A stretch of DNA of 64,000 bases from Rickettsia sp. (GTDB taxonomy: Bacteria > Pseudomonadota > Alphaproteobacteria > Rickettsiales > UBA1997), in contig JAYPPA010000002.1 of assembly GCA_038131245.1 (NCBI GenBank), positions 32,354 to 96,353 of the forward strand, written 5' to 3'. A program made the translations under genes and the position numbers. Each line of letters opens with the position of its first letter. Positions within the stretch are counted from its first letter, which is position 1. Under the pieces are notes generated by a model, which was not told where the DNA came from, made no database searches, and worked only from the letters and a program-made list of their open reading frames with translations. Of the stretch, positions 38,682 through 39,352 are shown piece after piece.

Positions 38682-38700
38682 TTGTCTTGTCTTTTAGTTT

Positions 38701-38890
38701 GGTGGCGTGTGCTGAGAAAAACCCTCCGTCAGGCTGTGCCTGCCACCTCCCTATAAATAGGGAGGAATTGAGTGAGTTTGCTGGGTATGCATCCTAGAGA
38801 GGAATTTAGAGTTGAGGCTCGGTGCAAATTCCCCCCTATTTATAGGGGGGTGGCGCGTAGCGCCGGGGGGTTTGTTGCAAAACCCTATGA
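38701..38890. repeat. family-A palindromic element, full copy (RPE/MITE-like, about 190 bp)
   Basis: The left arm ...aaaccctccgtcaggctgtgcctgccacctccctataaatagggaggaatt pairs with the right arm aattcccccctatttataggggggtggcgcgtagcgccggggggttt. Each arm has its own short hairpin (cctcccta-taaa-tagggagg). Confidence 0.75.
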
Positions 38891-38911
38891 TTTAAATTAA
38901 AACACACCAAA

Positions 38912-39292
38912 ATGACAAAATCTAGGCAATATAAAAATCTGCCATATAATCCAAAATTAAGAAATAGAGCTAGAGAATTAAGAAAGTCAGGCGGGGTATT
39001 ATCTGAAACTTTAATTTGGGGCCAGCTTAGTGGTAAGAAATTTCTTGGCCTTAGGTTTAATCGACAAGTGGTTATTGGTAATTATATTGTTGATTTTTTG
39101 TGCAAAAAATTAGGAGTTGTGATTGAGATTGATGGTTGTACTCATGATTTTAAAGAGGACTATGATAAAAGAAGGGACCTTTATCTTAAGAGTTTGGGCT
39201 TGAAGGTTATTCATATTTATGATATTGATGTTAAGAATAGTTTAGATGGAGTTATGGAGTTTTTGAGGGTTGAGTTTGATGGTGTGTGCTGA
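38912..39292 (+). CDS. DUF559 (Vsr-like PD-(D/E)xK) endonuclease-domain protein
   Basis: RARELRKSGGVLSETLIWGQL..RFNRQVVIGNYIVDFLC..VIEIDGCTHD..RRDLYLKSLGLKVIH is the typical DUF559 pattern. Confidence 0.8.
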   Translation: MTKSRQYKNLPYNPKLRNRARELRKSGGVLSETLIWGQLSGKKFLGLRFNRQVVIGNYIVDFLCKKLGVVIEIDGCTHDFKEDYDKRRDLYLKSLGLKVIHIYDIDVKNSLDGVMEFLRVEFDGVC

Positions 39293-39352
39293 GAAAAACC
39301 CTCCGTCAGGCTGCGCCTGCCACCTCTCTATAAATAGGGAGGAATTGGACTG
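39281..39352. repeat. family-A element, left-arm half copy (direct repeat of 38701-38770)
   Basis: ggtgtgtgctgagaaaaaccctccgtcaggctgcgcctgccacctctctataaatagggaggaattgg is about 95% identical to the left arm upstream. It contains the DUF559 stop codon. Confidence 0.75.

Follow-up and report, generated by a model that had tools for sequence, protein, structure and literature searches.

A DUF559 nuclease gene between inverted copies of a hairpin motif in a Rickettsiales-like genome, probably one copy of a widespread selfish cassette

Introduction

Why a small nuclease gene should be bracketed by copies of one and the same structured repeat is the question raised by the interval between tyrS and rpe in a Rickettsia sp. 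contig (JAYPPA010000002.1), of which a stretch of 64 kb, hereafter the window, was analysed. The gene encodes a DUF559 protein of 126 amino acids (aa), and a reading made from the sequence alone had proposed that gene and repeat form one unit and that the nuclease mobilises the repeat. We consider it fairly probable that positions 38693 to ~39385 of the window are one copy of a compact selfish cassette, widespread in bacteria, whose nuclease acts on its own arms. The core of the cassette consists of a left arm in inverted orientation (A2), the 126-aa DUF559 gene and a right arm in forward orientation (A3).

The tyrS-rpe locus and its repeats

A repeat search of the window returned a direct repeat of 78 nt, 94% identical, at 38693-38770 and 39270-39347 with a spacing of 577 nt. 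Its 36-nt core has exactly two occurrences in the 64 kb, and matches to it were found in 0 of 100 dinucleotide shuffles. The direct copies that the sequence-only reading had placed on both sides of the DUF559 gene are thus borne out; its upstream interval (38701-38770) stands, whereas the downstream one was about 3 nt out of register, the true partner being 39278-39347. That reading was also right that the downstream copy encodes the end of the gene and its stop codon, the repeat beginning at codon 120 with VEFDGVC* lying within it, and that the upstream copy, in a region that follows the end of tyrS at 38681, spells out a very similar ending (ttt ggt ggc gtg tgc tga). It covered the locus only in part: a third arm copy, diverged and inverted, separates the upstream copy from the gene (38825-38874), and a similarity of ~55-60% continues for ~40 nt more on the 3′ side of both direct copies. 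The features of the locus are listed below, together with their matches to our covariance model (CM) R1 of the arm motif and their counterparts in L004, the locus of the closest homologue.

38693..38717, + strand: leader of the upstream forward unit; 19 of 22 nt equal the gene's last codons, and it reads *FGGVC*
38718..38771, + strand: motif copy A1, a forward arm and extra right-end copy; CM R1 38.8 bits, E 4.7e-07
38770..38807, + strand: decayed second forward unit B (leader, hairpin 2 remnant and AATT); alignable both to what follows A3 and to the degenerate second unit of L004
38825..38874, - strand: motif copy A2, the inverted arm and left end of the cassette; CM R1 46.9 bits, E 7.4e-09
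38875..38911, + strand: spacer or 5′ untranslated stretch from the left arm to the ATG; TTAAATTAAA(A)CACACC..AAAATG aligns with L004
38912..39292, + strand: DUF559 (Vsr-like / EDxHD-fold PD-(D/E)xK) endonuclease gene, 126 aa; PF04480
39270..39294, + strand: leader of the downstream forward unit; encodes the gene's last 7 codons and the stop
39295..39348, + strand: motif copy A3, the forward arm and right end of the cassette; CM R1 39.4 bits, E 3.4e-07
39347..39385, + strand: decayed second forward unit B′; alignable to B as well as to unit 3 of L004

Good copies of the motif number four in the window, namely A1 and A3 (forward), A2 (inverted) and one solo copy lying in-frame in mtaB at 60.3 kb. 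Over 28 nt, A2 is an inverted repeat of A1 (93%) and of A3 (89%), its hairpin 1 being GGCGC/GCGCC in place of CAGGC/GCCTG. A1 and A2 make up a convergent pair of arms, and A1 folds as DNA into two hairpins (z -3.9).

The leader and the right-end units

The upstream FGGVC had been taken for the ghost of a gene's 3′ end. This does not hold, as a leader of the same kind precedes every forward unit, decayed ones included. It was found in front of the decayed units after A1 and A3 (GAGTGAGTTTGCTGGG... and GGACTGAGGATGTTTCAGG...) and of all five forward units of L004 (AGACCGARCTTG...). The solo copy in mtaB has its proximal part, TGTTGATAAAGAYACCCC, as do the inverted arm of L004 and two solo copies that are intergenic in that locus. 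With the leader at decayed units and solo copies alike, we rejected the upstream copy as the relic of a deleted gene. The proximal part is this lineage's own 5′ extension of the motif; forward arrays in other lineages are made of units of 39-49 nt without a leader. When upstream and downstream similarity beyond the motif was compared in 22 pairs, it was seen in the window and L074 only, and by eye in L004 too, and an extension of the repeat past the motif was rejected as a general feature.

The forward-arm unit of this Rickettsiales-like lineage measures ~70 nt, composed of a leader of ~22 nt and the motif, and is often found in short arrays. Since the leader precedes all forward units, the open reading frame (ORF) of the nuclease ends inside the first unit of the right-end array, which is present a second time as the upstream copy. 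The direct repeat first noticed is therefore the right-end unit present twice, as A3 and B′ in place and as A1 and B upstream of the left arm. The drop from 94% identity over leader and motif to ~55-60% over the decayed units suggests that the intact unit has been subject to selection or gene conversion, and speaks against the right-end copies being due to one neutral duplication.

One composite at two chromosomal sites

The whole composite (38693 to ~39385) is colinear with positions 4176-4955 of L004, the common order being leader and A1, decayed B, spacer, A2, 5′ stretch, gene, leader and A3, decayed B′. In L004 it is located between a carB-like gene and coaE, neither of which occurs in the window, and the homology ends at the edges of the composite. 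That gene and element behave as one unit, as had been claimed, is supported by this colinear composite at two unrelated chromosomal sites and by a layout that recurs in most of the 82 loci described below. Comparison of the window gene with that of L004 gave a dS of 1.39 and a dN/dS of 0.13, indicating that the gene is under purifying selection; the alignable non-coding parts must be constrained too, since they can still be aligned with L004 at this dS.

The host is a Rickettsiales-like alphaproteobacterium; the best named relatives of its TyrS and MtaB belong to metagenome-assembled genomes of Rickettsiales. In relatives with a TyrS identity of 77-86%, the synteny lnt-HTH-tyrS-...-rpe-cysS (HTH, helix-turn-helix) is kept and the interval holds neither cassette nor motif, so that the cassette, rather than being fixed and syntenic, is absent from the tyrS-rpe interval of these relatives. 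The contigs of the closest ones end 46-207 nt after tyrS and others carry other inserts, and the comparison yielded neither a true empty allele nor exact insertion boundaries. The relatives' spacer contains another family of GC-rich hairpin repeats, e.g. ..ccttccccttcggggtgggtccc.. (L089:4737-4943, L090:3769-3814, L091:4737-6234), and that of L091 also a 266-aa ORF without a Pfam match. Two of the relatives' contigs end inside spacer repeats, which makes the tyrS-rpe spacer an insertion hotspot. Contigs of the L004 type come from the same samples as the relative with 86% TyrS identity and have a similar low coverage, a weak suggestion that a sister organism carries the cassette at another site. 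Several TyrS homologues from related organisms (P0129, P0133, P0139, P0136 and P0146) exceed the 410-aa norm by 30-80 residues and might hold in-frame insertions.

The motif and DUF559 genes across phyla

Both of the closest homologues, L004 (72% aa identity) and L008 (63%), have an inverted arm upstream and tandem forward arms downstream of the gene. A genome scan with the DUF559 alignment gave 80 loci from species of many phyla, with 52-65% identity, and our gene-side statistics cover 82 loci beyond the window (83 with it) from dozens of phyla. The order inverted arm, gene, forward arm is found in most of the 82, and the fuller order of the window, with a forward arm ahead of the inverted one, recurs in 18 of the 83. 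Across the gene-anchored loci the CM returned 294 matches in 492 kb. Within 50 nt of the gene, inverted copies reach a density of ~14 per kb on the upstream side and forward copies ~13 per kb on the downstream side, compared with 0.05 per kb per orientation at more than 1 kb from the gene, and the nearest copy is inverted upstream in 65 of 76 loci (p 2e-10) and forward downstream in 52 of 68 (p 1e-5). The association between gene and repeat that had been predicted is thus present, with a density ~260-fold higher near DUF559 genes, and is orientation-specific.

The two arms also differ in kind. Hairpin 1 of the CAGRC type is found mostly in left arms (17 vs 2) and the CCC/GGG type mostly in right arms (20 vs 7; Fisher p 2e-5). 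As these distinct types are kept with the gene, left arm, gene and right arm travel together. In a control set of 26 viral contigs with DUF559 genes, arms were found at the one close relative (55%) and at 0 of 25 distant ones (<=45%), and the arms are therefore specific to this DUF559 clade. A plasmid collection yielded no close relatives of the protein, the best match being at 41%.

The encoded nuclease

The 126-aa protein matches Pfam PF04480 over residues 16-117 with 93.6 bits (cut-off 20.6; E 8.6e-27), and a profile search of the Protein Data Bank (PDB) matched it to 3hrl (E 3e-24). All 25 invariant columns of a 40-sequence family alignment are kept in the window protein, among them D61, E72, D74, H78, D85 and R88, and its IEIDGCTHD stretch is a signature of the EDxHD type (E..D...HD). 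An AlphaFold2 (AF2) model (pLDDT 87, pTM 0.80) was compared by Foldseek with the DUF559 structure 3hrl (TMt 0.80), with the catalytic domain of I-Bth0305I, 3r3p (TMt 0.77), and with Vsr, 1cw0 (prob 0.99, TMq 0.50). Model and Foldseek matches together give the protein a Vsr-type alpha/beta nuclease fold, with nuclease activity as a prediction. A published classification of the PD-(D/E)xK proteins unites Vsr, DUF559 and 3r3p in one group (PMC3424549). Vsr-like enzymes are established homing endonucleases of introns, inteins and 'fractured genes' (PMC3239194, PMC2677866), and since homing endonucleases with this fold exist, a selfish role would be plausible for it here as well.

No intron family of Rfam was found in or around the locus, nor any intein domain in Pfam; the 126-aa protein carries no extra DNA-binding domain and has neither a Y1_Tnp match in Pfam nor a PADLOC match, and no dcm-type cytosine methylase adjoins the gene. 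Homologous proteins bear odd N- and C-terminal extensions (...SPLxEGWQAKPDGV..., ...TPSLRDTPLKEGN, ...NTPSLRDTPLKEGN, ...HPSxGGE), which are the arm translated in various frames and on both strands.

The arms as probable DNA hairpins

The arm is a motif of ~48 nt, ACCACCCCG-[hairpin 1, variable sequence]-CCACCCCTCC-nnn-GGAGGGG-AAT, with outer ends of the form ...GGGGAAT(T). A hairpin scan, an nhmmer profile and CM R1 recovered it alike beside the gene. Its structure was set by hand, RNAalifold on the raw MAFFT alignment having mis-registered hairpin 2. Over 98 distinct copies, 90.5% of the paired cells are in fact paired, compared with 76% in column shuffles and 44-58% when the partners are slid. 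Both stems covary, with double changes at all 7 pairs of hairpin 1 (CG43 / AU25 / GC14 / UA12 at one of them), and the pairs number 1226 Watson-Crick, 2 G:T and 3 A:C in hairpin 1 and 2029, 10 and 20, respectively, in hairpin 2. Both strands of the arm fold equally well as DNA. Rfam searches of the locus at permissive E-values and of 15 related loci at gathering score gave no family for the arms; nothing like a terminator, with a T run after a hairpin, was found in the stretch 38400-39600, the arms running into AATT, and our scan found no promoter-like site upstream of the DUF559 gene. With stems almost purely Watson-Crick, both strands able to fold and no terminator, promoter or Rfam match, these sequence data point to a structure at the DNA level, the motif probably forming cruciform or single-stranded DNA hairpins and not RNA. 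An RNA-level structure or a terminator was rejected as an identity for the motif, there being no terminator-like site and essentially no G:U pair in the covarying stems.

These results bear directly on the simplest alternative, in which the locus would be an ordinary local duplication whose hairpins would serve a resident gene as RNA terminators, insulators or stabilisers, with no mobility at all. It agrees with the presence of a single cassette in 64 kb and of GC-rich hairpins in an AT-rich spacer between convergent genes. Such an explanation is nevertheless largely refuted and we give it hardly any credence: besides the missing terminator-like and upstream promoter-like sites in the scan and the near absence of G:U pairs from covarying stems, the arms occur in both orientations and inside ORFs without matching any Rfam family, and the closest homologue has the same composite at another chromosomal site, relatives lacking it in this interval.

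Copies without the gene

The motif was also sought on its own in metagenomes, which gave 80 loci with 160 copies. A DUF559 gene is present in 11 of these 80 loci, and lies within 150 nt of a motif (<=150 nt) in 10 of the 11. When the 121 longest of the 144 non-overlapping ORFs adjoining these copies were assigned to families, DUF559 was the sole recurrent one (9 of 121), unrelated families being represented by at most two ORFs each; three further neighbours matched MTES_1575, a DUF559-related nuclease model that is also a weak match to the window protein. No transposase occurs among the 25 most frequent Pfam families listed for the 121 ORFs. Most of the copies are solitary; besides singlets, 27 convergent pairs, 13 divergent pairs and 16 tandem arrays were counted, and solo and paired copies adjoin unrelated housekeeping genes. 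A divergent doublet of 122 nt, ATTCCCC...GGGGAAT (inverted arm, 26-nt spacer, forward arm), is found with unrelated flanks in four loci from termite-gut metagenomes (L109, L110, L127, L168); it behaves like a miniature inverted-repeat transposable element (MITE) and is a gene-less derivative of the cassette. Dispersed copies share the hairpin-2 variant of their own locus's cassette in 76% of cases vs 52% between loci (permutation p ~0.006). By analogy with REP/RAYT or with pairs of insertion sequences (IS) and MITEs, the autonomous arm-gene-arm form would be outnumbered by its gene-less derivatives.

Two gene-less copies were found in the window itself:

60299..60346, + strand: solo motif copy in the linker of the MtaB gene; CM R1 48.8 bits, the top CM match of the window
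35460..35510, + strand: decayed motif copy at the 5′ end of the lnt ORF; CM R1 11.9 bits, E 0.46, broken pairs, a weak match

The first lies in-frame in a hypervariable linker of an intact MtaB ORF (59908-61374, domains UPF0004 and Radical_SAM), where it encodes the peptide DKDTPALKSHPSNRGEF; the closest MtaB (83% identity) has a diverged version of it, and more distant orthologues have none. The decayed copy stands at the annotated 5′ end of lnt (peptide KKTPRLASPSTLLIEAN), the true start of which may be downstream.

The abundance of gene-less copies could equally be read the other way round, with the motif as an independent dispersed repeat that is moved by another enzyme or by recombination, and the DUF559 gene as a free-standing homing-type parasite that targets its copies or a passenger carried between them. 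Such a repeat would account for the 86% of motif-anchored loci without DUF559, for the solo and paired copies beside unrelated housekeeping genes and for a GIY-YIG domain that lies behind the same motif array in L052, and the record of Vsr-like and EDxHD enzymes as established homing endonucleases (PMC3239194, PMC2677866) suits it as well. However, no transposase or other recurrent candidate was found among the 25 most frequent Pfam families listed for the 121 ORFs, distinct left and right arm types are kept with the gene across phyla, and the arm-gene-arm composite is colinear at two unrelated sites, as fits arms belonging to the gene's own element. We therefore regard an independent repeat as unlikely.

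Restriction-modification contexts

In 43 of the 83 loci, the DUF559 domain is contained in a stop-free ORF of at least 260 aa. Pfam identifies these ORFs as restriction-modification proteins with the arm-gene-arm segment in-frame, the hosts being type I HsdR, whose nuclease domain it separates from the motor domain, as well as HsdS, Type ISP, Eco57I/MmeI-like enzymes and N6_N4 methylases (L033, L050, L029, L052, L018, L028, L022, L036, L071, L080, L035, L045, L012, L060, L067 and others). One in-frame host, QueA (L084), is outside restriction-modification, and the small free-standing copies are mostly in type I operons. Fourteen HsdR cases belong to one horizontally spread lineage with flanks 79-95% identical, and we consequently rejected the in-frame HsdR hosts as independent insertions. 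In the HsdR of L052, the GIY-YIG domain is in-frame behind a triple motif array, upstream of the DUF559 insert (L052:1599-1727, 2326-2533). Thirty singleton contexts, together with the window and L004, are not linked to the cluster of 45 loci with related flanks, and the window and L004 copies are located among housekeeping genes.

DUF559 proteins have been reported as enriched, with an odds ratio of 14, among predicted targets of programmed inversion (PMC9881135). The in-frame restriction contexts fit this enrichment and leave room for a function linked to restriction. The cassette might accordingly be an accessory module of restriction-modification loci, serving as an extra nuclease domain or as an invertible segment that switches host genes, with the window copy as a stray. 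Such a module would explain why 45 of the 83 loci have related flanks (those checked are restriction-modification) and why the cassette is in-frame in such enzymes, why HsdR-embedded copies are kept intact at 72-87% identity, and why DUF559 has its odds ratio of 14 among inversion targets (PMC9881135). It fits poorly with the window, L004 and the 30 singleton contexts outside the cluster, the first two among housekeeping genes, with a motif that spreads without the gene, with the lack of a PADLOC match, and with left and right arms that share only ~22 nt of continuous homology; we think it quite improbable.

Proposed mechanism and points against it

That the nuclease mobilises the motif is something we infer from their association, which supports it well. 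In the selfish cassette that we favour, the nuclease would nick or cut the arms, the probable sites being hairpins close to the AATT termini that are extruded or single-stranded, after which host recombination or repair would copy or move the cassette and its gene-less derivatives. Gene-less arms would then be non-autonomous derivatives, and the right-end copies could have been kept alike (94%) by recent duplication or gene conversion. It is tempting to go further and see here a new class of mobile element that has a minimal Vsr-fold nuclease only, acts on its own arms, spawns solo copies and doublets, settles in-frame because the arms are open in all frames, and spreads between phyla on restriction-modification genes; this we offer tentatively, as a possibility rather than an expectation.

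Several observations weigh against a nuclease that moves its own arms. The exact protein was found on 4 contigs with the same neighbouring genes in the 3 returned, which gives no sign of movement in this organism, and a PD-(D/E)xK nuclease of 126 aa alone cannot join DNA. The 80 gene-anchored loci are not independent, 14 of them being one site of one HsdR lineage (flanks 79-95% identical), and 45 of the 83 fall into one single-linkage cluster of related flanking genes, the checked members of which are restriction-modification genes; long retention in intact restriction genes could reflect domestication or another role, and not ongoing mobility. From the motif side, 86% of the loci have no DUF559 gene, and the GIY-YIG domain of L052 means that a second nuclease family may use the arms as well. 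Finally, the AATT termini are self-complementary, and in the 122-nt doublet a target-site duplication is not distinguishable from the arm.

Other repeats of the window

Further repeats were noted in the window. A second, unrelated palindromic family of ~128 nt has two copies, at 41595-41723 (+) and 58113-58240 (-), both intergenic and similar in kind to Rickettsia palindromic elements (RPE), with conserved ends GTCATCTCGAACCT..GAGAGATCCCTTGTTAA ... TTAGCAAGGGATTTCTCGCTTCGCTCGAAATGACATAG and a variable centre. We also found a perfect tandem repeat of 141 nt in 2.2 copies (45957-46271), a coding repeat with a period of 99 nt and ~10 units (50500-51563), a short-period T- and GC(T/A)G-rich repeat (52843-53121) and a pair of 50-nt copies around the palindrome TATACTATACCCCAGTATAGTATA (26481-26646).

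Comparison with known systems

We searched the literature on DUF559, EDxHD, Vsr-like homing, REPIN/RAYT, hsdR insertions and the motif sequence and found no description of the cassette, so that cassette and motif are apparently undescribed. The REP/RAYT (REPIN) system resembles it in having a usually single-copy gene of nuclease type flanked by inverted cognate short palindromic repeats, and a repeat with structure at the DNA level that is dispersed as singlets and doublets and outnumbers the gene. However, RAYT is an HUH Y1 transposase (IS200/IS605 type) that acts on single-stranded hairpins with a 5′ GTAG, whereas the present gene encodes a PD-(D/E)xK nuclease of Vsr fold; the cassette motif has two hairpins and a duplicated CCACCCC tract, and its copies are in-frame in genes, in a clade that extends across phyla and is found largely on restriction-modification loci. 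If the nuclease does act on the arms, the two would be parallel systems of nuclease and cognate repeat with different enzyme folds. The odd terminal extensions of DUF559 proteins and their scores as 'inversion targets' would be explained by the same activity, and attention is also drawn to a conserved insertion in numerous restriction enzymes of type I, type ISP and type IIG.

The EDxHD homing endonucleases, represented by I-Bth0305I, have the same catalytic fold and E..D...HD signature and are likewise selfish, horizontally spread genes. They reside in group I introns, in inteins or between split-intein halves and carry extra DNA-binding regions without a cognate flanking repeat, in contrast to the cassette gene, a minimal one that stands free or is fused in-frame and has structured inverted arms at its borders. 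The Vsr repair endonuclease shares fold and superfamily as well, although sequence similarity is low (1cw0, TMq 0.50) and the cassette gene is bounded by repeats and is not part of a repair operon. If the arms are indeed its substrate, so small a nuclease (126 aa), acting on a structured and defined DNA site, could find use as a reagent.

As in the RPE, we are dealing with a short palindromic element of an AT-rich, Rickettsiales-like genome that is found in-frame in a housekeeping protein (mtaB) as well as between genes. The cassette unit is ~48-70 nt long, unlike the ~100-150 nt of an RPE, and its motif occurs in dozens of phyla rather than in one lineage; the label 'RPE-type' describes behaviour, as seen in the in-frame copy of mtaB, and is not meant as a family assignment; Rfam contains no RPE family that matched. 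We know of no mobilising enzyme for the elements that Ogata et al. (2000) described. Should the proposed mechanism be correct, the nuclease would be the first enzyme to come into question as the mobiliser of RPE-like palindromic elements that lie in-frame, and a concrete candidate for how short palindromic elements enter genes in-frame, an open question for elements of the Rickettsia type.

MITEs and mobile insertion cassettes offer a further parallel, with terminal inverted arms that bound a gene or a short spacer and, in our data, the 122-nt doublet in four different flanks, although the 25 most frequent neighbour families listed include neither a DDE transposase nor another transposase as partner. 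The cassette, then, works like REP/RAYT or an IS/MITE pair and in part like an RPE, and departs from each of them in the enzyme feature by which it is defined.

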